From Escherichia coli (GTDB lineage: Bacteria; Pseudomonadota; Gammaproteobacteria; Enterobacterales; Enterobacteriaceae), in assembly GCF_002854065.1 (NCBI RefSeq), contig NZ_CP024147.1: 64,000 nucleotides of DNA, one strand, 5' to 3'. The first letter of the stretch is position 1. Each line of letters begins with the position of its first letter. The translations under genes and the position numbers were made by a program. Shown piece after piece: positions 23,706-44,172 of the stretch. The notes beneath the pieces were generated by a model, which did not search any database, was not told the origin of the DNA, and saw only the letters and a program-made list of their open reading frames with translations.

Positions 23706-24725
23706 TTACCTGAAAGCAACAGTAGCCATAGCTAACGTCGTGTCGAGCATTCGGTTAGCAAAGCCCCATTCGTTATCGCACCAGACCAACGTTTTGATCA
23801 GGTGTGCGCCACTGACCCGGGTTTGGGTGCCATCGACAATGGCACTGTGCGGATCGTGGTTAAAATCTACAGAGACCAACGGCAATTCCGTATAGTCAAC
23901 TATACCATGAAATGCACCTTGTGCTGCTTTTTGCAGCAACAGGTTGACTTCATTGGCTTTTACAGGTTTCTTCACCGTCACGCTTAAATCGATTGCCGTC
24001 ACATTTATGGTTGGCACACGTACCGCAATCGCTTCAAAGCGATCGTTAAATTGCGGAAAAAATCGTGTGATACCGGCGGCCAGTTTAGTATCGACCGGAA
24101 TGATCGACTGGCTGGCTGCCCGGGTGCGACGCAGGTCAGGATGGTATGCATCAATAACCTGTTGATCGTGCATGGCGGAGTGAATTGTGGTCACAGTGCC
24201 GGACTCAATACCGTACGCATCATCTAACAATTTGATGACGGGAATTATGCAATTCGTGGTACAGGAAGCGTTAGAAACGATGCGGTGTTCCGCACGAAGT
24301 TGATCCTGATTGACGCCGTAAACAACGGTCGCGTCGAGATCGTTACTGCCAGGATGTGAAAAGAGCACTTTTTTGGCCCCGGCGGCAATATGCGCTTCGC
24401 CATGCTCGCGGGAGCCATATACGCCGGTGCAGTCGAGGACTACATCAACGCCAAGTTCACGCCAGGGGAGCGATTGCAGTGAACGTTCATGCAATACGCG
24501 GATGGCGTCATCACCAACAAAAAGTTGATCGCGTTCCTGTCGTACTTCCCATGCAAAACGGCCATGGCTGGTGTCATATTTCAACAAATGCGCCATGCCC
24601 GCAGCATCCGCCAGTTCGTTGATTGCCACCACGGTAATTTCCGCCCGGCGTCCGGATTCATACAAAGCACGAACCACATTACGCCCGATGCGACCGAAGC
24701 CATTTATCGCTACGCGTACGGTCAT
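23706..24725 (-). CDS. epd: D-erythrose-4-phosphate dehydrogenase
   Basis: Track ORF 23706..24809 trimmed to [30 protein letters not shown]... (339 aa); GAPDH family. Confidence 0.93.
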
Positions 24726-25099
24726 AGATCTCCTGCAAGGTTTTCCCTGAGCAAATTTGCCAGACAGAGTAATCCAGCAAATCGTCCGGGGAAACCTTAC
24801 CTGTCGCAAACTGCGACTGATTGGTTAATTGTCGAACATTTAATCGACTGAAACGCTTCAGCTAGGATAAGCGAAACGTGGAATAAAAGGAATGATTGTC
24901 CAGTCAAAGAAGACAATTATCTGACTTACGTCACGTTTTCAGCCCCGCCCCTGTGGAATTTATTCCACTTTGCAGAATCACGAATAAGCGTAGCAAAATC
25001 TTTTCGTTGTGCCGTCACAAACCCTGACTTATATCAGAATATGACTGATGCAGCGTCGATATTATCCGCAATACGTCCGAGTTTCGGAGTACTCCAATG

Positions 25100-25528
25100 A
25101 TGACATTGCCCTACCCATATTCTTCCTCCGCACGCTTTTACGCACTGCGCCTCCTCCCCGGGCAGGAAGTTTTTTCCCAGCTACACGCTTTTGCACAGCA
25201 GCAGCAACTTCATGCCGCCTGGATTGCAGGCTGTACCGGTAGCCTGACTGACATCGCCTTGCGCTATGCCGGGCAAGAAGGCACCACGCTCCTGAACGGT
25301 ACATTCGAAGTGATCTCACTAAACGGCACGTTGGAACAGAGTGGTGAGCATCTTCATCTCTGCGTTTCCGATCCACACGGCACGATGCTTGGCGGTCATA
25401 TGATGCCCGGCTGTACCGTGCGGACCACGCTTGAACTGGTGATCGGTAGCCTTGAGGAACTGGCGTTTAGCCGCCAACCTTGCGCGCTTTCTGGTTACGA
25501 CGAGTTGCATATTTCCCCCGTTAAATAA
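25100..25528 (+). CDS. DUF296 (PPC domain) protein; first gene of accessory transporter operon
   Basis: 142-aa ORF MTLPYPYSSSARFYALRLLPGQEVFSQL...GEHLHLCVSDPHGTMLGGHMMPGCTVRTTLELVIG; PPC/DUF296-like pattern; 22 nt upstream of next gene. Confidence 0.6.
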   Translation: MTLPYPYSSSARFYALRLLPGQEVFSQLHAFAQQQQLHAAWIAGCTGSLTDIALRYAGQEGTTLLNGTFEVISLNGTLEQSGEHLHLCVSDPHGTMLGGHMMPGCTVRTTLELVIGSLEELAFSRQPCALSGYDELHISPVK

Positions 25529-25550
25529 CTACTTTCAGAGAGGTTTTCTT

Positions 25551-26129
25551 ATGGCGCGTAGCCACTTTTCCAGTCAGGCGCTGGTGTTAATCGTTATATC
25601 TATCGCCATCAATATGATCGGCGGGCAACTGGCCAGCATGGTCAAATTACCTATATTTCTCGACTCCATCGGCACACTTATTAGCGCGGTACTGCTTGGT
25701 CCGGTGATCGGGATGCTGACCGGTTTACTGACCAATTTACTCTGGGGATTGCTGACCGACCCGATCGCCGCCGCATTTGCGCCCGTGGCGATGGTCATCG
25801 GCCTGGTCGCCGGTTGGCTGGCGCGAGCGGGTTGGTTCCGCACCCTGCCAAAAGTCGTTGTCAGCGGCGTGATTATTACGCTTGCGGTAACGGTCGTCGC
25901 TGTACCGCTGCGTACTGCGCTGTTCGGCGGTGTCACCGGTAGCGGAGCCGATTTGTTCGTTGCCTGGATGCACTCGATGGGGCAAAACCTGGTGGAGTCG
26001 GTGGCGATTACGGTGATAGGCGCGAACCTGGTCGATAAAACTCTTACAGCGGTGATTGTCTGGCTTTTACTGCGCCAGCTGCCGATTCGCACCACGCGCC
26101 ATTTTCCGGCAATGGCTGCCGTGCGCTAA
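25551..26129 (+). CDS. ECF-type transporter substrate-specific (S) membrane component, substrate unknown
   Basis: Track ORF 25452..26129 trimmed to ATG 25551 after RBS agagagg; 192 aa, about five hydrophobic helices; stop overlaps next start (TAAATG). Confidence 0.6.
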   Translation: MARSHFSSQALVLIVISIAINMIGGQLASMVKLPIFLDSIGTLISAVLLGPVIGMLTGLLTNLLWGLLTDPIAAAFAPVAMVIGLVAGWLARAGWFRTLPKVVVSGVIITLAVTVVAVPLRTALFGGVTGSGADLFVAWMHSMGQNLVESVAITVIGANLVDKTLTAVIVWLLLRQLPIRTTRHFPAMAAVR

Positions 26130-26837
26130 ATGCATCCATTTACCTCATTAACACTATGGGCATTGGCGGCCTGCACCACGCTTATCCTGCCCGCGCAGAC
26201 CATTTTGCCGATCTATAGCGCGGCGACCTTTTTTTGCCTTATTGCGCTAAAGGCCACGCGGCGGCGGGCAAAATATGTCGCCTGGCTGATGTTCTCGCTG
26301 GGAGCCGGGCTGTGGCTGGTACACGGTGGCTGGCTAACAGAATGGCTAAGCGGCACGCCGCGTTCGCCGGAGCGTTGGACGCATGCTATTACGCTCTGGT
26401 TGCGGATTCTGGCGATTGTTTCAACCTCACAGTTGTGGATGCAGTACGTCCCCGTGCAATGTTTTATCCGCGCCCTGTTCGCCTCCCGCCTGCCGCCGGG
26501 CGTCGCTTATCTGTTTGCCGGGCCGTTATTGGTCGTTGAGCAATTAAAACGGCAATTAGCGATTATCCATGAAGCGCAGCGCGCCCGCGGCGTGCCGCTT
26601 GATGAAGGCTGGTATCAGCGTTTACGCGCGATGCCCGCATTAATTATTCCGCTAACACACAATGCGCTAAACGATCTTGCTGTCCGTGGTGCGGCGCTGG
26701 ATATGCGGGCATTTCGGATCCACAACCGACGAACAACGTTGTGGGCACCAGCCGATAGCACCCTACAACGCGTAGCGCGTTACACCATGATCTTGCTGAT
26801 GCTGACAGAATTCGGAGCGTGGATATGGTTACGTTAG
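26130..26837 (+). CDS. ECF/cobalt-type transporter transmembrane (T, CbiQ-like) component
   Basis: 235-aa polytopic membrane ORF; operon position between S component and ATPases. Confidence 0.6.
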   Translation: MHPFTSLTLWALAACTTLILPAQTILPIYSAATFFCLIALKATRRRAKYVAWLMFSLGAGLWLVHGGWLTEWLSGTPRSPERWTHAITLWLRILAIVSTSQLWMQYVPVQCFIRALFASRLPPGVAYLFAGPLLVVEQLKRQLAIIHEAQRARGVPLDEGWYQRLRAMPALIIPLTHNALNDLAVRGAALDMRAFRIHNRRTTLWAPADSTLQRVARYTMILLMLTEFGAWIWLR

Positions 26838-27502
26838 AACAGTTCCGTTATTGCCCGACACACTCAACGCATCCTCCGTTCTGTTATGACTTTCACTATG
26901 TCAAACCGGGGATGGTCGCCATCTTTGGTGACAACGGCAGTGGCAAAAGTACGCTGGCGCAACTGATGGCGGGCTGGTATCCGGACTTTCTGCCTGGAGA
27001 GATTGCAGGCACGGGAACGCTCCTCGGTACGCCCGTTGGGCATCTCCCGCTTAATGAACAATCCGCCACCATCCAGCTCGTCCAGCAATCGCCCTATTTG
27101 CAGCTCTCCGGCTGTACCTTTAGCGTGGAAGAAGAAGTTGCCTTTGGGCCAGAAAATCTGTGTCTTGCTGAAGCAGAGATTATGGCGCGGATTGATGCCG
27201 CCCTGACTCTGACCGAGTGCCAGCCGTTGCGCCATCGTCACCCGGCAACACTCTCCGGTGGAGAGACACAGCGCGTGGTCATCGCCTGCGCCATCGCGAT
27301 GCAGCCAAAGCTATTAATTCTTGATGAAGCCTTTAGCCGCCTGACGCCGCAGGCCAGCGAAATGCTGTTGCAGCGCTTACAACACTGGGCGTTTGAACGT
27401 GGTTCGCTGATTATTCTTTTTGAACGTCATCGCACACCTTTCCTGAACTACTGCCAGCAAGCGTGGCAATTGCAAAACGGAGCGCTCCAGCCACTATGTT
27501 AA
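26825..27502 (+). CDS. ABC/ECF transporter ATPase subunit 1 (canonical motifs)
   Basis: Walker A GDNGSGKST, signature LSGGETQR, Walker B LLILDEAF; alternative GTG start at 26819. Confidence 0.8.
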   Translation: MVTLEQFRYCPTHSTHPPFCYDFHYVKPGMVAIFGDNGSGKSTLAQLMAGWYPDFLPGEIAGTGTLLGTPVGHLPLNEQSATIQLVQQSPYLQLSGCTFSVEEEVAFGPENLCLAEAEIMARIDAALTLTECQPLRHRHPATLSGGETQRVVIACAIAMQPKLLILDEAFSRLTPQASEMLLQRLQHWAFERGSLIILFERHRTPFLNYCQQAWQLQNGALQPLC

Positions 27503-28173
27503 CGTTAAATCAGATAACTTATCGCTGGCCTGACGCGGCAACGGATTGTCTTTGCGACATTTCTCTGCAACTCAAACAAGGTGAATGGTTGGCTCTGACC
27601 GGCGACAATGGTGCAGGAAAATCGACGCTGTTACGAGTAATGGCAGGTCTTCTTACGCCCACAGCCGGTACGGTTATGCTGCAACAACAGGCGATGAAAA
27701 ACCTGAAAAACCGCCAGCGCGCGGCAAAGGTTGGCGTACTGTTTCAGGAAGCGGAAAACCAGCTTTTTCACAGCACCGTCGCTGACGAGATCGCATTTGG
27801 TTTGAAACTGCAAAAATGCCCGGCGGATGAAATCACTCAACGTACCAATGCTGCCCTGCAATGCTGTCAGTTAGCAGACACTGCCAGCGCGCACCCGTTG
27901 GATCTGCATAGTGCGCAGCGACGGATGGTCGCCGTCGCCTGCCTGGAAGCACTCTCTCCGCCACTATTGCTGCTGGACGAGCCGAGTCGGGATTTTGACG
28001 AAAATTGGTTGAGCGTGTTTGAAAGCTGGCTGGAGAAGTGCCGCCAGCGAGGCACGAGCGTCGTAGCAATCAGTCATGACGCCGCATTTACCCGGCGTCA
28101 TTTCTCTCGTGTGGTGCGACTGGAAGATGGTCTAATCAGGAACATTAATCCACCAGACGATATTCACCCGTAG
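27496..28173 (+). CDS. ABC/ECF transporter ATPase subunit 2 (degenerate signature motif)
   Basis: Track ORF 27463..28173 trimmed to ATG 27496 (ATGTTAA overlap with upstream stop); Walker A GDNGAGKST, Walker B LLLDEP, signature replaced by LHSAQRR. Confidence 0.75.
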   Translation: MLTLNQITYRWPDAATDCLCDISLQLKQGEWLALTGDNGAGKSTLLRVMAGLLTPTAGTVMLQQQAMKNLKNRQRAAKVGVLFQEAENQLFHSTVADEIAFGLKLQKCPADEITQRTNAALQCCQLADTASAHPLDLHSAQRRMVAVACLEALSPPLLLLDEPSRDFDENWLSVFESWLEKCRQRGTSVVAISHDAAFTRRHFSRVVRLEDGLIRNINPPDDIHP

Positions 28174-28858
28174 CGGTCATCATTAAGGTCAAATTTGCAG
28201 GTAGACTCTCTTCCAGCACCCGGCGAACATTCGGCCCGTCGGTACGGTCATAAAAAGCTTCTGCGTCTGCCAGCGATACCCCTCCCGCCAGCTTGCGCCC
28301 TACCAGTCGTTCCCGCAACGCAGTAGCTGGCGCGTTGATAAAGATCGAGAATTCACAAAATTGCGCAAGCTGGCACCACTTCTCGTCGTCCAGCAACAAC
28401 CAGTTTCCTTCGACGATGACGAGTGGTGCGGTAACGTGCAACGCATCTTCAACAGGATCATGCTTTTGTCGATCGTACTGCGGCCACGTACAATCCCCTT
28501 CCACGACCTGGCGTAGATTTTCCGCCAGTTTCGCAACGTCAAATGTCTCTGGTGCGCCTTTGAAGGGGCGCAATTGATGCGCATCCAGCCAGCTATTGTA
28601 ATGGTGAAAACCATCCATCGGCAGCGTCTGAATAGCGGGCAGTTCCGGGTCTTGTTGCGCGAGATATTCCCAGAAGGTGGTTAGGGTTGATTTACCCGTC
28701 CCCGGCGGAGCGCAAAGAAAAACCACCGTACGCCGCTGCGGATTTACCGTCTGTAAGGCCGCCAACATGTGCAGCAACGGTTTATGTACATTTTCAATCT
28801 CTTCGTTCTGGTACTGTGCCTGTATCTTCAGCCCATTCACCGTTAATTCAATTTTCAC
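28145..28858 (-). CDS. yggC: P-loop nucleoside/pantothenate kinase-like protein YggC
   Basis: 237-aa ORF with Walker A APPGTGKST; convergent with the ATPase gene. Confidence 0.85.
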   Translation of the reverse strand: MKIELTVNGLKIQAQYQNEEIENVHKPLLHMLAALQTVNPQRRTVVFLCAPPGTGKSTLTTFWEYLAQQDPELPAIQTLPMDGFHHYNSWLDAHQLRPFKGAPETFDVAKLAENLRQVVEGDCTWPQYDRQKHDPVEDALHVTAPLVIVEGNWLLLDDEKWCQLAQFCEFSIFINAPATALRERLVGRKLAGGVSLADAEAFYDRTDGPNVRRVLEESLPANLTLMMTATGEYRLVD

Positions 28859-33570: not shown

Positions 33571-34074
33571 TTATTGATAGTGTTTTATGTTCAGATAATG
33601 CCCGATGACTTTGTCATGCAGCTCCACCGATTTTGAGAACGACAGCGACTTCCGTCCCAGCCGTGCCAGGTGCTGCCTCAGATTCAGGTTATGCCGCTCA
33701 ATTCGCTGCGTATATCGCTTGCTGATTACGTGCAGCTTTCCCTTCAGGCGGGATTCATACAGCGGCCAGCCATCCGTCATCCATATCACCACGTCAAAGG
33801 GTGACAGCAGGCTCATAAGACGCCCCAGCGTCGCCATAGTGCGTTCACCGAATACGTGCGCAACAACCGTCTTCCGGAGACTGTCATACGCGTAAAACAG
33901 CCAGCGCTGGCGCGATTTAGCCCCGACATAGCCCCACTGTTCGTCCATTTCCGCGCAGACGATGACGTCACTGCCCGGCTGTATGCGCGAGGTTACCGAC
34001 TGCGGCCTGAGTTTTTTAAGTGACGTAAAATCGTGTTGAGGCCAACGCCCATAATGCGGGCAGTTGCCCGGCAT
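33571..34074 (-). CDS. insB: IS1 InsB' frame (expressed as InsAB' by -1 frameshift)
   Basis: 167-aa ORF overlapping insA 3' end; IS1 transposase catalytic region. Confidence 0.9.
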
Positions 34075-34268
34075 CCAACGCCATTCATGGCCATATCAAT
34101 GATTTTCTGGTGCGTACCGGGTTGAGAAGCGGTGTAAGTGAACTGCAGTTGCCATGTTTTACGGCAGTGAGAGCAGAGATAGCGCTGATGTCCGGCGGTG
34201 CTTTTGCCGTTACGCACCACCCCGTCAGTAGCTGAACAGGAGGGACAGCTGATAGAAACAGAAGCCAC
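33993..34268 (-). CDS. insA: IS1 InsA (transposition inhibitor / N-terminal part of InsAB' transposase)
   Basis: 91-aa [46 protein letters not shown]... Confidence 0.95.
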
Positions 34269-34653
34269 TGGAGCACCTCAAAAACACCATCATACACTAA
34301 ATCAGTAAGTTGGCAGCATCACCAAATACTCGTGCGGTTTAATGAAAGCAATTGGGTACGCGAGAAGAAAAACCCCATAAACCAAAATAATAAAACCTTA
34401 AATAACAACAATATGAAATTGATATCTTTAAAGTCAACTTTGTGTTTGTTATGTTTATCACAAAATCAACATTTTGTTTGTTATTGTATTTGTGATGCAT
34501 ATCTCTATTTATTTATTGAATGTTCGAAAACATACTTTTCTAATGCAATGTTTTTTCGCTATACCCCTTTATAGAATCTGAATTCTCACCTGTCGGCTGT
34601 TTTCTCCTCATCTCATGTGACATATTCCCACACTTTACTCAAGGAAGATTGTC

Positions 34654-35562
34654 ATGAAAGCACCTGTTTCATTAACCTCATTTCGCCCACAAAAATCTCT
34701 TGCTATCGCCATCGGCGTGCTTGCCGTGGTTGTGCTGCCATTTCTCTCGTATTACACCGTTAATGAAGGTGAACGCGGCATTTTGCTGCGCTACGGAAAA
34801 ATCGTAAAAGTTGCCGAGCCGGGTCTGGGTTTTAAGATCCCGTTTATGGAAAGCGTGGAGAAAATTTCCACGCGTAATCAGGCTGTGGTCTATCAGGGAT
34901 TACAGGCCTACAGCCGCGACCAGCAACCGGCACAAATGACAGTATCAGTCAGCTTCCACATTAAACCTTCAGAAGCAGGCGCGGTTTATACCACCTACAA
35001 CACCATTGAAGCATTAAAAGATCGTCTGATTGTCCGTCAGTTGCCAACTCAACTGGAGAACGTTTTCGGCCAATATACCGCCATCAGCGCTGTACAGGAT
35101 CGTACAAAACTGGTTCAGGATCTGCAAAATGCCATGCGCAAAGCCGTTGTTGGGCCAGTGGTAATTGACGGGGTCCAGATTGAAAATATTGATTTTTCTG
35201 ACGCTTATGAAAAGTCGATTGAAGACCGAATGAAAGCAGAAGTCGCCATTGCCACGCGTAAGCAAAATCTGGAAACAGAGAAAATCCAGGCGCAAATAGC
35301 GGTAACTCAGGCCCAGGCAGAAGCAGACAGTAAACTGGCGGCAGCCAAAGCAGAAGCGGAAACTATTCGCGTAAGAGGCGCGGCAGAGGCTGAAACTATT
35401 CGTTTAAAAAGTGCGGCTGAAGCAGAAGCAATCCGCCTGCGCGGTGAAGCTCTGCGGGATAATCCCGGACTTGTAGCCCTCACCACTGCCGAACGTTGGG
35501 ACGGTAAACTGCCCGATACCATGATCCCCGGCAGCACAGTTCCGTTTATCTCTACTAAGTAA
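34654..35562 (+). CDS. SPFH/band-7 (prohibitin/stomatin-like) membrane protein with C-terminal Ala/Glu-rich repeats
   Basis: 302-aa ORF; N-terminal TM helix IAIGVLAVVVLPFL, SPFH-like core, C-terminal repeats AEAETIRVRGAAEAETIRLKSAAEAEAIRLRGEA; preceded by 330-bp AT-rich region. Confidence 0.7.
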   Translation: MKAPVSLTSFRPQKSLAIAIGVLAVVVLPFLSYYTVNEGERGILLRYGKIVKVAEPGLGFKIPFMESVEKISTRNQAVVYQGLQAYSRDQQPAQMTVSVSFHIKPSEAGAVYTTYNTIEALKDRLIVRQLPTQLENVFGQYTAISAVQDRTKLVQDLQNAMRKAVVGPVVIDGVQIENIDFSDAYEKSIEDRMKAEVAIATRKQNLETEKIQAQIAVTQAQAEADSKLAAAKAEAETIRVRGAAEAETIRLKSAAEAEAIRLRGEALRDNPGLVALTTAERWDGKLPDTMIPGSTVPFISTK

Positions 35563-35604
35563 AAAAAGGGCCGCTTTCGCGGCCCTTGAGAGTGATGGCA
35601 AAAG

Positions 35605-35725
<121 letters not shown>

Positions 35726-35781
35726 TTACCAATAATCTAAAGGGCCGCTTTCGCGGCCCTTCTCACAAAACGTCTTACTGA

Positions 35782-37773
35782 TTACAGCAGCGCTTTTGCT
35801 TTCGCAACAACGTTATCAACAGTGAAGCCGAACTCTTCAAACAGCAGCTCTGCCGGAGCAGATTCACCGAAGGTGGTCATACCGACGATAGCACCGTTCA
35901 GGCCAACATACTTGTACCAGTAGTCAGCAATACCCGCTTCTACCGCAACGCGTGCAGTAACCGCTTTCGGCAGTACGGATTCACGGTAAGCCGCATCCTG
36001 CTTGTCGAATGCATCGGTAGACGGCATGGAAACCACGCGCGCCTTCACGCCTTCGGCAGTCAGTTTTTCGTAGGCGGCAACAGCCAGTTCAACTTCCGAA
36101 CCGGTCGCGATGAAGATCAGTTCCGGCTGACCGGCACAGTCTTTCAGCACATAACCACCGCGCGCGATGTTTGCCAGCTGCTCTTCAGTACGCTCCTGCT
36201 GCGCCAGGTTCTGACGGGAGAGGATAAGCGCGGTCGGGCCGTCCTGACGCTCAACACCGTATTTCCATGCCACTGCAGATTCAACCTGGTCACATGGACG
36301 CCATGTAGACATGTTCGGGGTCACGCGCAGAGAAGCAACCTGCTCTACCGGCTGGTGAGTCGGGCCATCTTCGCCCAGACCGATGGAGTCGTGGGTGTAA
36401 ACCATCACCTGACGCTGTTTCATCAGCGCAGCCATACGTACGGCATTACGTGCGTATTCTACGAACATCAGGAAGGTGGAGGTGTACGGCAGGAAGCCAC
36501 CGTGCAGGGAGATACCGTTAGCAATCGCGGTCATACCGAACTCGCGAACACCGTAGTGGATGTAGTTACCCGCAGCATCTTCGTTGATTGCTTTAGAACC
36601 AGACCACAGGGTCAGGTTAGACGGTGCCAGGTCAGCGGAGCCGCCGAGGAATTCCGGCAACAGCGGACCGAACGCTTCGATAGCATTCTGCGACGCTTTA
36701 CGGCTGGCGATTTTCGCCGGATTAGCCTGCAGTTTAGCAATGAACTCTTTCGCTTTCGCGTCGAAGTCAGACGGCATTTCACCTTTCATACGACGGGTGA
36801 ATTCAGCCGCTTCCTGCGGGAAGGCTTTGGCGTAAGCCGCGAATTTCTCATTCCAGGCAGCTTCTTTCGCCTGGCCTGCTTCTTTCGCATCCCACTGCGC
36901 ATAGATTTCAGACGGGATTTCGAACGGTGCGTATTTCCAGCCCAGCTGTTCGCGGGTCAGAGCGATTTCTGCATCACCCAGCGGCGCACCGTGGGAGTCG
37001 TGAGTACCGGCTTTGTTCGGGGAACCGAAACCGATGATGGTTTTGCACATCAGCAGGGACGGTTTGTCAGTCACTGCGCGCGCTTCTTCTACTGCGCGTT
37101 TGATGGATGCTGCGTCATGACCGTCGATGTCGCGAATAACGTGCCAGCCGTAAGCTTCGAAACGCATTGCGGTGTCGTCGGTGAACCAGCCTTCAACGTG
37201 ACCATCAATAGAGATACCGTTGTCATCGTAGAACGCAATCAGTTTACCCAGCTTCAGCGTACCCGCCAGAGAGCAAACTTCGTGGGAGATGCCTTCCATC
37301 ATGCAGCCGTCGCCCATGAAGGCGTAGGTGTAGTGATCGACAATGTCGTGGCCCGGACGGTTAAACTGCGCCGCCAGCGTTTTTTCTGCAATCGCCATAC
37401 CTACTGCGTTGGCAATACCCTGCCCCAGCGGACCGGTGGTGGTTTCCACACCAGCGGTGTAACCCACTTCCGGGTGGCCCGGAGTTTTAGAGTGCAGCTG
37501 ACGGAAGTTTTTCAGTTCTTCCATCGGCAGATCGTAACCGGTGAGGTGCAGCAGGCTGTAGATCAGCATGGAGCCGTGGCCGTTGGACAGCACGAAGCGG
37601 TCACGGTCAGCCCAGGACGGATTCTGCGGGTTGTGTTTCAGGAAATCACGCCACAGGACTTCGGCAATGTCAGCCATACCCATAGGGGCACCCGGGTGAC
37701 CGGATTTGGCTTTCTGTACTGCGTCCATGCTCAGCGCACGAATAGCATTGGCAAGCTCTTTACGTGAGGACAT
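35782..37773 (-). CDS. tktA: transketolase 1
   Basis: Track ORF 35782..37803 trimmed to [41 protein letters not shown]... (663 aa). Confidence 0.95.
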
Positions 37774-38050
37774 TTTGACTCCAGATCGGATGATGAAGGG
37801 CACGCCCTTAACGACTTGACGACAGCGCGTTTTGGGCTACGCCGGAAAATTTGCCAACAATTTACCGCAAGCCGCGCGTCATGTACATGGAACATCCTTT
37901 TGCCGCTTCAGAAATCTCTGGATCATGCTCGCATGTTGCGCAATCTACTCGCCCGTCCGCTGCGCTTTTCCTTATACTGAGACTGAGCGTCGGTTCACCT
38001 GCAAACGGCGCATTTTTAGAATAATCCTGACCTTGTGCGGAAGAAAAAAC

Positions 38051-38809
38051 ATGAAAATTCGCGCCTTATTGGTAGCAATGAGCGTGGCAACGGTACTGAC
38101 TGGTTGCCAGAATATGGACTCCAACGGACTGCTCTCATCAGGAGCGGAAGCTTTTCAGGCTTACAGTTTGAGTGATGCTCAGGTGAAAACCCTGAGCGAT
38201 CAGGCATGTCAGGAGATGGACAGCAAGGCGACGATTGCGCCAGCCAATAGCGAATACGCTAAACGTCTGACAACCATTGCCAACGCGCTAGGCAACAATA
38301 TCAACGGTCAGCCAGTGAATTACAAAGTGTATATGGCGAAGGATGTGAACGCCTTTGCGATGGCTAACGGCTGTATCCGCGTCTATAGCGGGCTGATGGA
38401 TATGATGACGGATAACGAAGTCGAAGCGGTGATCGGTCACGAAATGGGGCACGTGGCGTTAGGCCATGTGAAGAAAGGGATGCAGGTGGCACTTGGTACA
38501 AATGCCGTGCGAGTCGCGGCGGCCTCTGCGGGCGGTATCGTCGGCAGTTTATCGCAATCACAGCTTGGTGATCTGGGCGAGAAATTAGTCAATTCGCAAT
38601 TCTCCCAGCGCCAGGAAGCAGAGGCGGATGATTACTCCTACGATTTACTGCGCCAACGCGGCATCAGTCCGGCAGGTCTTGCCACCAGCTTTGAAAAACT
38701 GGCAAAACTGGAAGAAGGTCGCCAAAGCTCAATGTTTGACGACCATCCAGCATCCGCCGAACGCGCCCAGCATATTCGCGATCGTATGAGCGCGGACGGG
38801 ATTAAGTAA
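38051..38809 (+). CDS. loiP: outer-membrane lipoprotein metalloprotease LoiP (YggG), M48 family
   Basis: Track ORF 37832..38809 trimmed to MKIRALLVAMSVATVLTGCQ (lipobox) ... HEMGHVALGH zinc motif; 252 aa. Confidence 0.92.
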   Translation: MKIRALLVAMSVATVLTGCQNMDSNGLLSSGAEAFQAYSLSDAQVKTLSDQACQEMDSKATIAPANSEYAKRLTTIANALGNNINGQPVNYKVYMAKDVNAFAMANGCIRVYSGLMDMMTDNEVEAVIGHEMGHVALGHVKKGMQVALGTNAVRVAAASAGGIVGSLSQSQLGDLGEKLVNSQFSQRQEAEADDYSYDLLRQRGISPAGLATSFEKLAKLEEGRQSSMFDDHPASAERAQHIRDRMSADGIK

Positions 38810-38820
38810 GGCATGGTGGT

Positions 38821-39120
38821 GCCAAACGTAGTTCAGATAAGGCATTTACGCCGCATCTGACATAAATGGCACATTCACTACCTCGTGCGCATTGCCGGAT
38901 GCGATGCTGGCGCATCTTATCCGGCCTACGGGTGCCAAACGTAGGTCAGATAAGGCGTTCACCCCGCATCTGACATGAATGGCACATTTGTTACCTTGTG
39001 CGCATTGCCGGATGCGATGCTGGCGCATCTTATCCGGCCTACGGGTGCCGAACGTAGGTCGGATAAGGCGTTCACGCTGCATCCGACATTAATGGCACGT
39101 TTTACCCGTGCGCATCGCAT
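38821..39120. repeat. BIME cluster: about 2.6 tandem copies of a ~113-bp REP-containing unit
   Basis: Unit gccaaacgtag..cagataaggc..ccgcatctgacat..gcgcattgccggatgcgatgctggcgcatcttatccggcctacgggt repeated from 38821, 38934 and 39046. Confidence 0.9.
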
Positions 39121-39127
39121 CTGGTGC

Positions 39128-40048
39128 TTACTCGCCCTTTTTCGCCGCCTGAATATACAGCATTTCCAGCGCCAGCGTTGCCGCTGCCAGAGCGGTGATT
39201 TCCGACTGATCGTATGCCGGAGCCACTTCCACTACGTCCATCCCAACGATGTTGAGATCTTTCAGGCCGCGTACCAGTTTAATAGCGCGATCGGAGGTCA
39301 GACCGCCAATTACCGGCGTACCGGTTCCCGGCGCAAATGCAGGATCCAGGCAGTCGATATCAAAGGTCAGGTAAACCGGCATATCACCCACAATTTGTTT
39401 CACCTGGGCGATAACGTCATCCACGCTGCGATCGTTCACCTGGCAGGCGTCCAGCACGGTAAAGCCGTTGTCTTTATCAAATTCGGTACGAATACCAATC
39501 TGCACGGAATGATTCGGATCGATCAGACCTTCTTTCGGCGCGGTATAGAACATGGTGCCGTGGTCAAATTCACAACCGTTCGCGTAGGTATCGGTGTGGG
39601 CGTCAAAGTGTACCAGCGCCATTTTGCCGAAATGCTTCGCATGAGCACGCAGCAGCGGCAGCGTAACAAAGTGGTCACCACCGAAGGAGAGCATACGCTT
39701 ACCGGCAGCCAGCAGCTTCTCGGCGTGTGCCTGCAGTTTTTCGCTCATCTCACGGGCATCGCCGAAGGCATATACCAGATCGCCGCAGTCCACCACGTTC
39801 AGACGCTCGCGCATGTCGAAATTCCACGGGAAGCGGTTGTGTTCCCAGGCCAGGTTAGTCGAAACCTGGCGAATCGCCGCCGGGCCATGACGACCACCGG
39901 CACGGCCAGAGGTGGCCATGTCGAACGGCACGCCGGTGATCACCCAGTCGGCATCGCTGTCATACGGCTGGAAGTTCATCGGCAGGCGTAAAAAACCAAA
40001 GGCGTTGGAAACCAGTGAGTTATCGTATTGATGACCTAAGGTGCTCAT
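39128..40048 (-). CDS. speB: agmatinase (agmatine ureohydrolase)
   Basis: 306-aa [63 protein letters not shown]...; arginase fold. Confidence 0.95.
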
Positions 40049-40071
40049 GGATGGACTCCTATTACAAAGTC

Positions 40072-40118
40072 GATATAAAAAAACCCTTCCGCGTCGTTAG
40101 GCCCGACGAGGAAGGGTT
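40072..40118 (-). terminator. rho-independent terminator 25 nt upstream of speB start
   Basis: Minus strand aacccttcctcgtcgggcctaacgacgcggaagggtt followed by T7. Confidence 0.6.
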
Positions 40119-40183
40119 GGATTTGCGAAACACAAGTTTGTGCTAATTATCGCCTTAAATGGGCGAGGCATCAAGCGAGGTTG

Positions 40184-40650
40184 CTATTTCCGACACGGTG
40201 GCGGCGCATAGCCATTGTTATCTGCCGGAAAGGCTTGTCCAGAGCACGGCGGCAGCGCGTTTTGCGCCTGGCCTTGTAATTCAAAGGCGGCAAAGCCGAT
40301 TACACCGGTATTACGCACATCGCCTTGCGCCGAATTGGCTGCGTAGGAATCAGCAACGTTGGCGAACTGAAAAGCCGCTTCGGTATGTTTATCTTTGCGG
40401 AATCCTTTAATCGCTAACGAATCTCCGGCATTCACAATATAGCCGTTGTTATTCAGCGAACCTTGCTTGCCGTTCAGCACATCCAGGCCATCAACCGTAG
40501 CAACGATCTCGTAGTTGGTGTTACGACTGTAATTACGAACATATAATTGATAATTCATTCCGACTCTGGCGTGGACAATATAGCGTGGTTCATTATTGGA
40601 TGAATCATAAACACGCGTAATAGGTAGAGAATTAAAATTACCATCGCGAA
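40184..40650 (-). pseudogene. 3' fragment of unknown gene, 5'-truncated by IS1 copy 2 (Asn/Tyr/Gly-rich, two C-terminal Cys)
   Basis: Minus-strand frame is open from IS1 boundary (40650) to stop at 40184, about 155 codons ending ...NALPPCSGQAFPADNNGYAPPPCRK; track shows only the part from the first Met (40184..40558); not recognisable as speA. Confidence 0.45.
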
Positions 40651-40665
40651 GGTAATGACTCCAAC

Positions 40666-41169
40666 TTATTGATAGTGTTTTATGTTCAGATAATGCCCGA
40701 TGACTTTGTCATGCAGCTCCACCGATTTTGAGAACGACAGCGACTTCCGTCCCAGCCGTGCCAGGTGCTGCCTCAGATTCAGGTTATGCCGCTCAATTCG
40801 CTGCGTATATCGCTTGCTGATTACGTGCAGCTTTCCCTTCAGGCGGGATTCATACAGCGGCCAGCCATCCGTCATCCATATCACCACGTCAAAGGGTGAC
40901 AGCAGGCTCATAAGACGCCCCAGCGTCGCCATAGTGCGTTCACCGAATACGTGCGCAACAACCGTCTTCCGGAGCCTGTCATACGCGTAAAACAGCCAGC
41001 GCTGGCGCGATTTAGCCCCGACGTATCCCCACTGTTCGTCCATTTCCGCGCAGACGATGACGTCACTGCCCGGCTGTATGCGCGAGGTTACCGACTGCGG
41101 CCTGAGTTTTTTAAATGGCGGAAAATCGTGTTGAGGCCAACGCCCATAATGCGGGCGGTTGCCCGGCAT
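40666..41169 (-). CDS. insB: IS1 InsB' frame
   Basis: 167-aa ORF; differs from copy 1 at several residues ([22 protein letters not shown]...). Confidence 0.9.
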
Positions 41170-41363
41170 CCAACGCCATTCATGGCCATATCAATGATTT
41201 TCTGGTGCGTACCGGGTTGAGAAGCGGTGTAAGTGAACTGCAGTTGCCATGTTTTACGGCAGTGAGAGCAGAGATAGCGCTGATGTCCGGCAGTGCTTTT
41301 GCCGTTACGCACCACCCCGTCAGTAGCTGAACAGGAGGGACAGCTGATAGAAACAGAAGCCAC
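41088..41363 (-). CDS. insA: IS1 InsA
   Basis: 91-aa ORF; one residue differs from copy 1 (NTIFRHL vs NTILRHL). Confidence 0.95.
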
Positions 41364-41418
41364 TGGAGCACCTCAAAAACACCATCATACACTAAATCAG
41401 TAAGTTGGCAGCATCACC

Positions 41419-42058
41419 CTCATGGGGTTATACATCAGCCGGGATTTCAAAAGCCTTCGGTGATGATAAATATCAACAGCAGTATTTATCACAGCGCAGC
41501 GGGTTTGCTATAGGTGAGGATGGTTTTGCATGGGGCCGCATGGACTATGATTCCGCGCTAATTGTCGATGCTACGGATTTGCCCGAAGATCAGTATTTCG
41601 AGGTGCGTAATCGTAATTCGGCACCAACGATTGTAAAAGGTGGTCAGAAAACAACGCTTTCTATGGAGCCGTATCGTAAGGTCGCACCAGAAGCTGAACA
41701 ACTCTACAGCAATAATATGGATGCTTATTACAATCTGAAAACGGAGTCTACTTCTACCTGGGCGAAACCAGGGCAAGTTTATAAAGTTAAACTTTCCGCA
41801 ACCCGGAATCTGACCGTCACCGGACGCCTTTATTTTGACGGTCAACCGTTGATTAACGCCAGGGTCGTTGGTGGGAATGCAATGGCAGATACTGATGGCT
41901 TATTTGTTGGTGATTTTACACTCCAGACAAATGAACAACTTAAATCTGTGAAAGTTAAACAAGACGGGCGTGATTTCATCTGTCCACTGCTGGATGAAAA
42001 TATCAAACTTGCGCAGGGTATTATGCAAATTCGTGAGGTTAATTGTGAAGTTCAATAA
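41419..42058 (+). pseudogene. C-terminal fragment of fimbrial outer-membrane usher, 5'-truncated by IS1 copy 2
   Basis: Frame open from IS1 boundary; C-terminus ...KVKQDGRDFICPLLDENIKLAQGIMQIREVNCEVQ parallels the two-Cys usher tail of FimD (...VQVKWGEEENAHCVANYQLPPESQQQLLTQLSAECR) as I recall it. Confidence 0.55.
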
Positions 42059-42062
42059 ATGG

Positions 42063-42755
42063 ATGGCTCTTTTTTTAGGATTGTTGGCTGGGTTTTCTAC
42101 CGTAGCGCAAGCTATTGAGGTGTTTCCTATTGTAAAAGAAATAAAGGAAGAAACGCCAAGAGATAATTATATTACCGTTAAGTCTATGTTTAAGCTGAAT
42201 GATAAAGTTGATGTTCCAGAACCAGACAAACAGCAATATGAATTCGTTACGCTTGATCTCTATCACATAAAAAACCCAGGCGATAAAAAAGAAAATATGG
42301 AAAAGGAATTGGGGACGGAAAACCCTGCGCTGGTATTTTCACCGACCAAACTGGTTATTCCATTCGGTGAAGAAAGGAAAATTCGCATCATGCCTATGCG
42401 TCCGGTTGATCATGAAACGGTATACAGGCTGCGTGTACGACCAAGTTATCCGGAACAGGCCCTTGAAAAAGGGAAGGTCCGTTTTGCTATTGGATATGAT
42501 GTTTTAATTCGTTATCTCCCGTCAGGTAAGCACACTCAGGGGATACAGATTAGCTGTGATAAAAACAACTGGCATTTGAAAGCAACCGGTAATGTAAGAA
42601 GTGAATTACGTAAATTGGTGATTGATGGCCGGATGCAGGAGGGGAATTTCAATGTTTATCCGGAAAACAGCAGAACTCTTAACGTGAATAAACGTCTTTC
42701 CTTCGAAATGGATGGAAAAACGCTGGTTTACGAAAATTGTCTGCTTAAGGAGTAA
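42063..42755 (+). CDS. putative periplasmic fimbrial chaperone (PapD-like)
   Basis: Track ORF 41970..42755 trimmed to MALFLGLLAGFSTVAQA signal peptide; about 230 aa; RYLP-type motif (FAIGYDVLIRYLP); follows usher fragment. Confidence 0.45.
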   Translation: MALFLGLLAGFSTVAQAIEVFPIVKEIKEETPRDNYITVKSMFKLNDKVDVPEPDKQQYEFVTLDLYHIKNPGDKKENMEKELGTENPALVFSPTKLVIPFGEERKIRIMPMRPVDHETVYRLRVRPSYPEQALEKGKVRFAIGYDVLIRYLPSGKHTQGIQISCDKNNWHLKATGNVRSELRKLVIDGRMQEGNFNVYPENSRTLNVNKRLSFEMDGKTLVYENCLLKE

Positions 42756-42758
42756 TTC

Positions 42759-43649
42759 ATGCGCTCATGGTTCTGTTTAATTGCACTGTTGTTGCCTGGC
42801 ATTGTATTTGCGAGTGGTGAGATGATTATTCAGCCTCAAAGTAAGGGGGCGGTTCACTTCCTTGCCCGTGGTCTTTCTTCTGGCGGCGACAATATTATCT
42901 CTGCTGCTTACAGCGCCGGGCGGCCTCTGTCTGTTTTATTTAGCCCGACAGGAAACGGACATTGTGAGGGCGATTTTTTGGCTGTGGATCATCTCCGGTT
43001 GTCTGTTCAGCAAGCAGGTGAAAATACTTCTTATACCTGTGGCGTTCCGGTAACGATCGAAAGTCCTTCGAAGGATGGGATCCTGCGCCTTCAGTTAACG
43101 AACTCGACGTCTGTTCAGGATTTCTCCTCATTGATGAGAACAGACGGGGGCCTGAGACAGCAAATTGGTAATTTGCAAATAACCCAGCAAGGTAATGAAA
43201 GTTTTATTGTCCCGATTTATCTGGATCTCACTATTTTGCAGAATCAGGTGGTTACGATAGCTGCTTCATTTGAAAAGCCATCTCTTCAACTTGGGCTGGT
43301 AGGCCCGGAACATGATGCTTCAGAGACTGTGGGTCTGCGCGTCAGCAAAACATTACAGGCAGGTGAGGAGGCGATGCTTTATCGCGTAACATTTGAATCT
43401 TCTCAACTGAAGGATAATAGGTTCCATTTACTATCCTCTGTTGATCATCAGTTTATTCCTTATCAAATCTATATATCTGGTGTCGAAGTTACCCCTTCTC
43501 AGCCTTATGTAAGTGAGCTGCCGCAGGGAAAGGCAACTTCTGAATTGCTTGATGTAAGATTCAATTTGTCTGGCCGAGCTGTTCGTGGCATGGCTGCCGG
43601 TTCGCGCTTACTTGATACGGTAACCGCAGTAGTAACCCCGGAAAGTTAA
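42759..43649 (+). CDS. putative fimbrial tip adhesin or minor subunit (secreted, 296 aa)
   Basis: Signal peptide MRSWFCLIALLLPGIVFA; two Cys in N-terminal half; C-terminal beta-strand-like TVTAVVTP; operon position. Confidence 0.45.
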   Translation: MRSWFCLIALLLPGIVFASGEMIIQPQSKGAVHFLARGLSSGGDNIISAAYSAGRPLSVLFSPTGNGHCEGDFLAVDHLRLSVQQAGENTSYTCGVPVTIESPSKDGILRLQLTNSTSVQDFSSLMRTDGGLRQQIGNLQITQQGNESFIVPIYLDLTILQNQVVTIAASFEKPSLQLGLVGPEHDASETVGLRVSKTLQAGEEAMLYRVTFESSQLKDNRFHLLSSVDHQFIPYQIYISGVEVTPSQPYVSELPQGKATSELLDVRFNLSGRAVRGMAAGSRLLDTVTAVVTPES

Positions 43650-43662
43650 ACTGGAGAATAAA

Positions 43663-44172
43663 ATGAAATTAACTTTTTTACCTGTTGTGCTGTCGGTAGC
43701 ATTTTGTAGTCAGGTTCAGGCTGTTGTACCGGTCAAAACATCTATTGATGTGCAGGCTGAAATCAGTACTGCGGTTAATATTTATGTTAATGGCCAGGAT
43801 GTCACCAATAAATCTATCAGTGTCAATCTGAAAGATGAAGGTGGCTATATGAAAGGCAGTACGCCACCTTTCCAGTTTGTTGGCAACGCCAGTTCTGTTG
43901 CCCTTTCGCTCCAGGCTCCGCCAGCGAATGGGTTGGTCGGCCCTGAAAATAAAGTTATGCCTTTACTGACATCCTGGTTCAATCCGGATGCGAATGCTGA
44001 AGTTTCGACAAGTTTTCCCTTTTCAAATATCAAGGTTTATCCAACGTTACAGGACGTACCTGATCCACAGAATGGTGTAAAAGTGGTATTTCGCTCGAAG
44101 GAGCGTAGCGAAACTTTCCCCTTGGGAACATATAGCGGGACTTATACCGTTATTGTAACGCCATCAGTTTAA
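43663..44172 (+). CDS. putative fimbrial subunit (secreted, 169 aa)
   Basis: Signal peptide MKLTFLPVVLSVAFCSQVQA; pilin-like size; C-terminal alternating hydrophobic strand GTYSGTYTVIVTPSV. Confidence 0.45.
   Translation: MKLTFLPVVLSVAFCSQVQAVVPVKTSIDVQAEISTAVNIYVNGQDVTNKSISVNLKDEGGYMKGSTPPFQFVGNASSVALSLQAPPANGLVGPENKVMPLLTSWFNPDANAEVSTSFPFSNIKVYPTLQDVPDPQNGVKVVFRSKERSETFPLGTYSGTYTVIVTPSV

Follow-up and report, generated by a model that had tools for sequence, protein, structure and literature searches.

In ATP-binding cassette (ABC) dimers, each ATP site is composed of the Walker A motif, Q-loop, Walker B motif and switch of one nucleotide-binding domain (NBD) and of the signature motif and D-loop of the other (PMC12038006). 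In the degenerate-site exporters, one NBD carries a deviant signature and its partner a deviant switch, sometimes together with a deviant Walker B motif (PMC12038006; reviewed in PMC3971661); ATP stays at the degenerate site, the NBDs remain in contact and the consensus site turns over (PMC3971661, PMC12038006). In energy-coupling factor (ECF) transporters, ATP binding makes the ATPases close, shifts the coupling helices of the T component and releases the S component (PMC10368641). Here we analyse two adjacent ABC ATPase genes, A1 and A2, located in a stretch of 64,000 nucleotides from Escherichia coli (RefSeq assembly GCF_002854065.1, contig NZ_CP024147.1; the whole stretch is termed the window). 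They belong to a five-gene cassette that resembles a dedicated ECF importer, and very probably form a pair with only one working ATP-splitting site; we infer the loss of catalysis at the other site from the sequences.

The closest functional analogues of A1–A2 are the degenerate-site heterodimeric exporters (TAP1/TAP2, TM287/288, CFTR and other ABCC proteins, and MsRv1273c/72c), in which the deviations are also confined to one composite site. These exporters are of type IV and have their NBDs fused to transmembrane domains, whereas A1 and A2 are unfused subunits within an importer of type III (ECF). The group II EcfA-EcfA'-EcfT modules of Lactobacillus brevis, L. delbrueckii and Thermotoga maritima are built from the same parts, namely two ATPases, a T component and a membrane S component. 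Compared with group II, A1 and A2 are devoid of the C-terminal domain and score far below the equivalog cut-offs, and the S gene lies in the operon. A1 and A2 are most closely related to the YkoD-type fused double ATPases of dedicated (group I) ECF transporters, which are homologous to them and show the same polarity of asymmetry; the E. coli domains differ from YkoD in being shorter, in being encoded by separate, overlapping genes and in working with an S component of another, CD3073-like family. The YkoEDC operon is regulated by a THI-box riboswitch (PMC5037267), unlike the E. coli cassette, where no Rfam match was found. In addition, a degenerate site has been noted from sequence in the bacterial importers RbsA and NupO of Bacillus subtilis (PMC11466899). 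These are of the type II fold, depend on substrate-binding proteins and have lost the second Walker A lysine, whereas both Walker A motifs are intact in A1/A2.

Conserved motifs of A2 and A1

The sequence-only reading of this DNA had held that A2 keeps its Walker A (GDNGAGKST) and Walker B (LLLDEP) motifs and carries LHSAQRR where LSGGQ is expected. Direct translation of the window, from which all motif coordinates of A1 and A2 are taken, agrees with this description. Conservation was assessed in orthologue sets of 74 A2 and 72 A1 sequences, covering ~72 species of Enterobacterales and Aeromonas. In an E. coli genome with 100% identity, the A2 frame is exactly a RefSeq coding sequence of the Prokaryotic Genome Annotation Pipeline (PGAP), the second of two named 'ABC transporter ATP-binding protein'. 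It contains the following features.

27496..28173, + strand: ATPase 2 (A2), 225 amino acids; Pfam PF00005, 95.9 bits (cut-off 25)
27601..27627, + strand: Walker A, GDNGAGKST; GxNGAGKST in 73/74 orthologues, the remaining one being incomplete at its start
27736..27753, + strand: Q-loop, VLFQEA; LFQE invariant in the orthologues
27904..27924, + strand: degenerate signature LHSAQRR, replacing LSGGQ(K/R)Q, placed by alignments to ABC proteins of the PDB
27964..27981, + strand: Walker B, LLLLDE, followed by P and the D-loop SRDFD (27985..27999); LDEP and [S/T/G]RDFD in 74/74 orthologues
28069..28080, + strand: H-loop, ISHD, with the canonical switch His194; ISHD in 74/74 orthologues

Three independent alignments place LHSAQ in the signature column, confirming that it stands where LSGGQ would be expected in solved ABC proteins. 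In a phmmer search against PDB chains, 'dlhsaqrrmvava' of A2 aligns column for column to 'qlsggqkqriaia' of ABCB4/ABCB1. With the C-terminal half of A2 as query (HMMER, PDB), the same region forms an ungapped block with 'lsggqkqrlaia' of ArtP-type ATPases.

The deviation is a property of the whole A2 family. The signature columns of the 74 orthologues read L in all 74, then H66/D4/N3/Y1, then A, T, S, V or I, then A41/G33, followed by Q-R-R-M-V-A in all 74, giving the family motif L-[H/D/N/Y]-x-[A/G]-Q-R-R-M-V-A; LSGGQ occurs at this position in 0/74. Twelve enterobacterial orthologues share an invariant L-H-[S/T/A]-A-Q-R-R-M. Moreover, searching the full library with HMMER yielded more distant relatives with a single domain (P0123 and P0124, 55-57% identity); these two, together with the fused relative P0122, all carry LHAGQRRMVAVA. 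As far as the sequences tell, the deviant A2 signature is conserved under constraint and is not a product of decay.

For A1, the same reading had listed canonical Walker A, LSGGETQR and Walker B motifs. This holds, but it leaves out the switch (FERH) and the D-loop (SRLT), both of which are non-canonical.

26825..27502, + strand: ATPase 1 (A1), 225 amino acids; PF00005, 77.2 bits (cut-off 25)
26927..26953, + strand: Walker A, GDNGSGKST; GxNG[S/A]GK[S/T] in 71/72 orthologues
27251..27265, + strand: signature LSGGE, canonical (LSGGETQR); LSGG[E/Q] in 72/72 orthologues; part of the consensus site
27311..27346, + strand: Walker B, LLILDE (27311..27328), followed by A-F and the D-loop SRLT; Asp-Glu in most orthologues
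27419..27430, + strand: switch region, FERH; Arg201 (27425-27427) at the position of the H-loop His

When the two families, A1 and A2, are aligned jointly with MAFFT, the F-E-R-x of A1 stands opposite the I-S-H-D of A2, and position 201 of A1 is R65/H3/Q3 among the 72 orthologues. His202 of E. coli A1 was considered as a displaced switch histidine, and one HMMER alignment to ABCB proteins indeed gap-aligned it to the switch. The family data speak against this candidate, which was rejected: position 202 is variable (N32/H9/R8/T6, also K and S), and the joint alignment puts Arg201 in the switch column. The A1 D-loop, FSR[L/M]T, is invariant and has no Asp, a residue found in 58/60 first domains of fused relatives.

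In five A1 orthologues, two from Hafnia (L058, L063) and three from Aeromonas (L066, L068, L069), the Walker B motif reads LDQA, with the catalytic Glu replaced by Gln; one further orthologue reads LDET, where the Glu itself is retained and the residue after it is altered. In Aeromonas, Gln occupies the A1 switch as well, and A2 has LDAGQ as its signature. The switch Gln is the same substitution as Gln528 of MsRv1273c, while the Walker B change differs, being Gln in Hafnia and Aeromonas A1 and Asp497 in MsRv1273c (PMC12038006). Unlike in the exporters, the A1 switch is usually Arg rather than Gln, the A2 signature Ser is usually His, and E. coli A1 retains its Glu. Exchange of the Walker B Glu for Gln is used experimentally to block hydrolysis, including in ECF modules (PMC10368641). 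In the L. delbrueckii module, which has LSGGQ signatures, a single Glu-to-Gln change in either ATPase leads to severe growth defects (PMC10368641); the natural occurrence of this change in Hafnia and Aeromonas A1 therefore marks a real difference in how the two kinds of module behave.

Two composite ATP sites in a predicted A1–A2 heterodimer

The motifs were assigned to composite sites as in PMC12038006. Site 1 consists of the P-loop side of A1 (Walker A/B and switch) and the signature of A2, whereas site 2 consists of the P-loop side of A2 and the signature of A1. On the A2 side of site 1, the signature Ser is replaced by His, the first Gly by Ser, Thr or Ala, and the second Gly by Ala (41/74); on the A1 side, the switch His is replaced by Arg or Gln, and in some species the catalytic Glu by Gln. 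At site 2, the Lys, Gln, Asp-Glu and His of A2 and the LSGG[E/Q] of A1 are invariant, and no catalytic residue is lost. Every catalytic loss thus maps to a single composite site, site 1.

This distribution bears on how the two proteins associate. An A1 homodimer would have no switch His and an A2 homodimer would have two deviant signatures, so that only the heterodimer yields one complete site. A natural single-chain A1–A2 fusion is known (P0122, 42% identity), whose first half carries LSGGE, FSRLS and FERH and whose second half carries LHAGQRRM and ISHD. The overlapping genes within one operon, the universal adjacency of A1 and A2, their complementary defects and the P0122 fusion together argue for a 1:1 A1–A2 heterodimer. 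The conserved A2 signature, the complementary A1 losses, the confinement of all these changes to site 1, the natural fusion and the structural model described below likewise support the proposal of the sequence-only reading that the pair is a heterodimer with one putatively non-catalytic site.

Structural modelling of the pair, which that reading had put forward as a check, was run on a single-chain pseudo-fusion, in which E. coli A1 was joined to A2 via the P0122 linker and an alignment of 59 fused homologues was supplied to AlphaFold2. The predicted NBD–NBD arrangement is confident, with a mean predicted local distance difference test (pLDDT) score of 90.3, a predicted template modelling (pTM) score of 0.85 and disorder in the linker only. 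The best whole-chain match of the model is the ATP-bound fused double NBD of Mycobacterium tuberculosis DppD (8wdb_D; TM-score 0.75), compared with 0.66-0.67 for the apo and substrate-bound states of DppD. A single domain of the model superposes on CbiO (5x40_A) with a root-mean-square deviation of 1.6 Å.

A similar asymmetry is found in fused ECF-type ATPases. A2 representatives were searched in a library of 1.8 billion proteins, and the 150 most similar to A2 were taken; these nearest representatives are mostly fused two-domain ATPases, the YkoD type being dominant, and all ten fusions that were sampled best match ECF ATPase or CbiO models. Among 141 fused two-domain ATPases, the canonical signature is present in 128 first and 39 second domains, the switch His in 103 first and 141 second domains, and the Walker B Asp-Glu in 126 first and 140 second domains, figures uncorrected for phylogeny that are to be read as a tendency and not as a rate. 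Of the deviant second signatures, about 40% depart from the consensus by a single change, of the LSxG[Q/E] type. For the discordant fused proteins, sign tests give p values of 5e-4 to 7e-24. Moreover, loss of the first-domain His or Glu accompanies a deviant second signature in 38/102 proteins, against 3/39 of those with a canonical one (Fisher p = 3.5e-4). The asymmetry has the polarity seen in the gene pair of E. coli. The survey suggests that, among dedicated and fused ECF ATPases, second signatures are deviant as a rule and canonical by exception. Two relatives, P0133 (683 amino acids) and P0157 (652 amino acids), have A1-like and A2-like domains after ~200-240 extra N-terminal residues, with FSRIQ or LERT in the first domain and LNSAE in the second; they may be T-A1-A2 triple fusions.

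The explanation that we consider probable is that A1 and A2 form an obligate heterodimer of a dedicated ECF importer, in which site 2 is catalytic and site 1 is degenerate. The A1–A2 ATPase would sit on the T component with its two composite sites being non-equivalent. Site 2, with its complete consensus, would hydrolyse ATP in every cycle, and binding and hydrolysis there would make the dimer close and open, shifting the T coupling helices and letting the S component topple. At site 1, the intact P-loop is expected to retain Mg-ATP binding; the groups that position and polarise the γ-phosphate are missing, so hydrolysis is predicted to be slow or absent there. By analogy with the degenerate-site exporters, ATP held at site 1 would keep the NBDs partly engaged. 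About one ATP would be consumed per transport cycle, a one-site cycle being the simplest reading. We speculate that a dedicated module, which needs no exchange of S components, may tolerate a permanently engaged site.

Several points weigh against this explanation. E. coli A1 keeps the Walker B Glu and an intact Walker A motif, which leaves room for slow hydrolysis at site 1. The A1 D-loop without Asp (SRLT) belongs to consensus site 2, which is hence not textbook-perfect. The invariant Q-R-R-M-V-A and the near-invariant His138 of A2 and Arg201 of A1 show selection at site 1 rather than simple relaxation; site 1 would be selected at a minimum for ATP binding and dimer contacts, and possibly for an alternative chemistry. 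In addition, the structural model is that of a designed pseudo-fusion, which can be taken as support for a head-to-tail NBD dimer of the standard kind but not for finer detail, and the fused proteins that were counted are phylogenetically non-independent and were picked by their similarity to A2.

The conserved residues at site 1 would also fit a dimer in which both sites are catalytic, with the signature His of A2, acting in trans, and the switch Arg of A1 replacing the usual Ser/Gly contacts and the switch His. A1 has an intact Walker A and an intact Walker B Asp-Glu in E. coli and most orthologues, and the conservation of A2 His138 (66/74), A1 Arg201 (65/72) and Q-R-R-M-V-A is stronger than a dead site would strictly require. 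We nevertheless regard this alternative as unlikely, in view of the hydrolysis-blocking Gln in Walker B of five A1 orthologues, the Gln at the switch of three, and the tolerance of the A2 signature position for D, N or Y and of the second Gly for Ala (41/74). The signature Ser and the second Gly contact the γ-phosphate, and losing them cripples hydrolysis. A compensatory swap of the signature His for the switch His was tried as an explanation and rejected; the combinations at A1 201/A2 138 (H/H in 3, Q/D in 3 and R/N in 3 species) show no covariation. Somewhat more doubtful still is a bolder proposal, in which site 1 has been re-engineered so that the A2 His and the A1 Arg form a clade-specific catalytic or ATP-latching geometry; the permanent latch would have made the C-terminal dimerisation domains dispensable in Enterobacteriaceae, the lineage that lost both and also went from LHxGQ to LHxAQ, and a single hydrolytic site would power most dedicated ECF modules, in contrast to the shared group II modules, which need two.

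The remaining alternatives fare much worse against the same data. The absence of the cassette from K-12 and from ~39% of complete E. coli genomes, and a truncated A1 in one Escherichia albertii genome, might suggest mutational decay in a dispensable, non-functional accessory operon; yet the five frames are intact, ~70 species, with identities falling to 42-57%, keep the gene order, the deviant motif and its invariant flanks, and the losses are strictly one-sided, as random decay would not produce, which makes decay very improbable. It is equally improbable that A2 dispenses with A1 and acts as a homodimer, as known for some ECF ATPases such as CbiO (PMC6828968), or as a regulatory ATP-binding subunit of another partner: only the A1–A2 heterodimer yields one complete site, and the two genes are adjacent and overlapping in every species and fused in P0122. 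Least credible, and already refuted, is a misidentified signature with a canonical LSGGQ lying elsewhere in A2, the observation that by the sequence-only reading would have overturned its claim; a scan of the A2 translation finds no LSGG anywhere, and the three independent alignments place LHSAQ at the signature. An obligate heterodimer with site 2 catalytic and site 1 degenerate is therefore retained as the best explanation.

Organization, components and distribution of the cassette

The cassette is composed of five co-directional genes in the order PPC-S-T-A1-A2, flanked by epd and yggC. Beyond epd lie pgk and fbaA, and the other flank continues from yggC to fumE and glpX. The three genes that precede A1 are as follows.

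25097..25528, + strand: PPC/DUF296 protein gene, first gene of the cassette; Pfam PF03479, 98.7 bits; PGAP 'PPC domain-containing DNA-binding protein'
25551..26129, + strand: ECF S (substrate-capture) component, 192 amino acids, a name also given by PGAP; Pfam PF12822, 33.2 bits (cut-off 30.7)
26130..26837, + strand: putative EcfT/CbiQ-type transmembrane T component, 235 amino acids; PGAP 'energy-coupling factor transporter transmembrane component T'

None of the five frames is interrupted in this window. The S gene starts 22 nucleotides after the PPC stop, and T begins on the base right after the S stop. T and A1 overlap by 13 nucleotides and A1 and A2 by 7 (ATGTTAA, in which the A2 start lies over the A1 stop), an arrangement that fits coupled translation. 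The five genes form a single tight operon. The 3' ends of A2 and of the convergent yggC share 29 nucleotides (28145-28173).

The S component and the two ATPases place the cassette in the ECF family. The T component matches Pfam CbiQ at 22.2 bits over 188 residues, slightly below the cut-off of 25, and has no NCBIfam match; its ARG and VRG motifs resemble those of EcfT coupling helices. The S component matches NCBIfam NF045596, 'CD3073 family putative ECF S component', with 134.9 bits (E = 2e-39), below the cut-off of 180. The PPC protein is an orthologue of the Salmonella structural-genomics entries 2HX0/2NMU (E = 7e-75). Its gene lies directly upstream of the S gene in ~70 species (L003-L076) despite differing neighbourhoods, and the protein behaves as a fifth component of the cassette. 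The S gene in turn stands directly upstream of T at all loci. Because the module has an S gene of its own, it counts as dedicated and group-I-like, and the cassette as a whole reads as an ECF importer operon of this kind, made of PPC, S, T, A1 and A2.

The top NCBIfam matches of A1 and A2 are ECF_ATPase_1, ECF_ATPase_2 and cbiO, which place both in the CbiO/EcfA clade. The best match of A1 is TIGR04520 ECF_ATPase_1 (120.1 bits against a cut-off of 315) and that of A2 is TIGR04521 ECF_ATPase_2 (150.3 bits against 330); with both scores below the equivalog cut-offs, the two ATPases fall outside the group II EcfA1/EcfA2 equivalogs. The matches stop at model positions 192-231 of 269-279, with both E. 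coli proteins running out near 223-231, and these proteins have no C-terminal helical dimerisation domain of the kind present in group II EcfA1/EcfA2. A1 and A2 are short (225 amino acids) only in the Enterobacteriaceae clade, which is the clade with LHxAQ. The orthologues from Morganellaceae, Budviciaceae and Aeromonas have ~53 (A1) and ~45 (A2) extra C-terminal residues and carry LHxGQ. On the tree, the loss of both C-terminal tails coincides with that of the second signature Gly; this concerns a single lineage and permits no causal inference.

Not every E. coli carries the cassette. The stretch 24850-28200 is 100% identical to E. coli strain XJ34, and at least 80% of it is present in 3319/5426 complete E. 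coli genomes (61%); the remaining ~39% match only its first ~100 bases. In E. coli K-12, epd is directly followed by yggC and the entire cassette is missing. Between this strain and K-12, YggC is 87% identical and Epd 100% identical. A survey with one genome per species returned 79 loci, with the PPC-S-T-A1-A2 order intact in ~70/79. The cassette occupies the epd site in Escherichia, Salmonella, Citrobacter, the Klebsiella oxytoca group and Kluyvera, and other sites in Proteus, Providencia, Morganella, Budvicia, Hafnia and Aeromonas. The position between epd and yggC is shared with Salmonella, Citrobacter, Klebsiella and Kluyvera, which suggests that the cassette was present ancestrally and later deleted. 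In E. albertii NBRC 107761 (L003 4267-4791), the A1 frame is ~70 codons short, which may reflect a pseudogene or a sequencing error.

The neighbouring genes give no clue to the substrate. The flanks differ among Proteus, Providencia, Hafnia, Budvicia and Aeromonas, and only the five genes travel together across them; hence no metabolic partner was found. A cmscan of 24700-28400 (E <= 1) matched no riboswitch or other Rfam RNA element, and consensus scans for promoters and terminators did not rise above the shuffled expectation. Literature searches on CD3073, STM3071-3075 and DUF296 with ECF found nothing useful.

Elsewhere in the window, two frames on the minus strand at 33571-34268 read as the insertion sequence (IS) 1 proteins InsB and InsA and adjoin a cmtB-like phosphotransferase system gene; similar regions of E. 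coli carry an annotated transposase of the IS1 family. The 13-kb stretch 34000-47000 has no counterpart of 80% or more, as one place, in any complete E. coli genome; the best matches reach 57% coverage (the tkt, speB and loiP region) and are fragmented by IS copies, and the GC content falls to 0.44-0.45 at 42-46 kb. This stretch is probably a mosaic or IS-interrupted accessory region.

Meaning for ECF transporters

The pairing of a consensus with a degenerate site has long been established in ABC exporters, and the finding for A1–A2 is confirmatory rather than surprising in this respect. A full-text literature search, in which most subscription journals lay outside the coverage, returned general ABC reviews only and no description of a degenerate site in an ECF transporter. 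ECF transporters have been studied almost wholly through group II modules, in which both sites are of the consensus type and both are needed (PMC10368641). The number of ATP molecules used per ECF cycle, and whether binding or hydrolysis is the driver, are still debated. The cassette described here represents an ECF motor with a natural asymmetry, in an organism that is amenable to genetics, and would permit a clean test of a one-site cycle. Moreover, A1 and A2 could be named as ECF ATPase subunits with defined roles, replacing the generic 'ABC transporter ATP-binding protein'.

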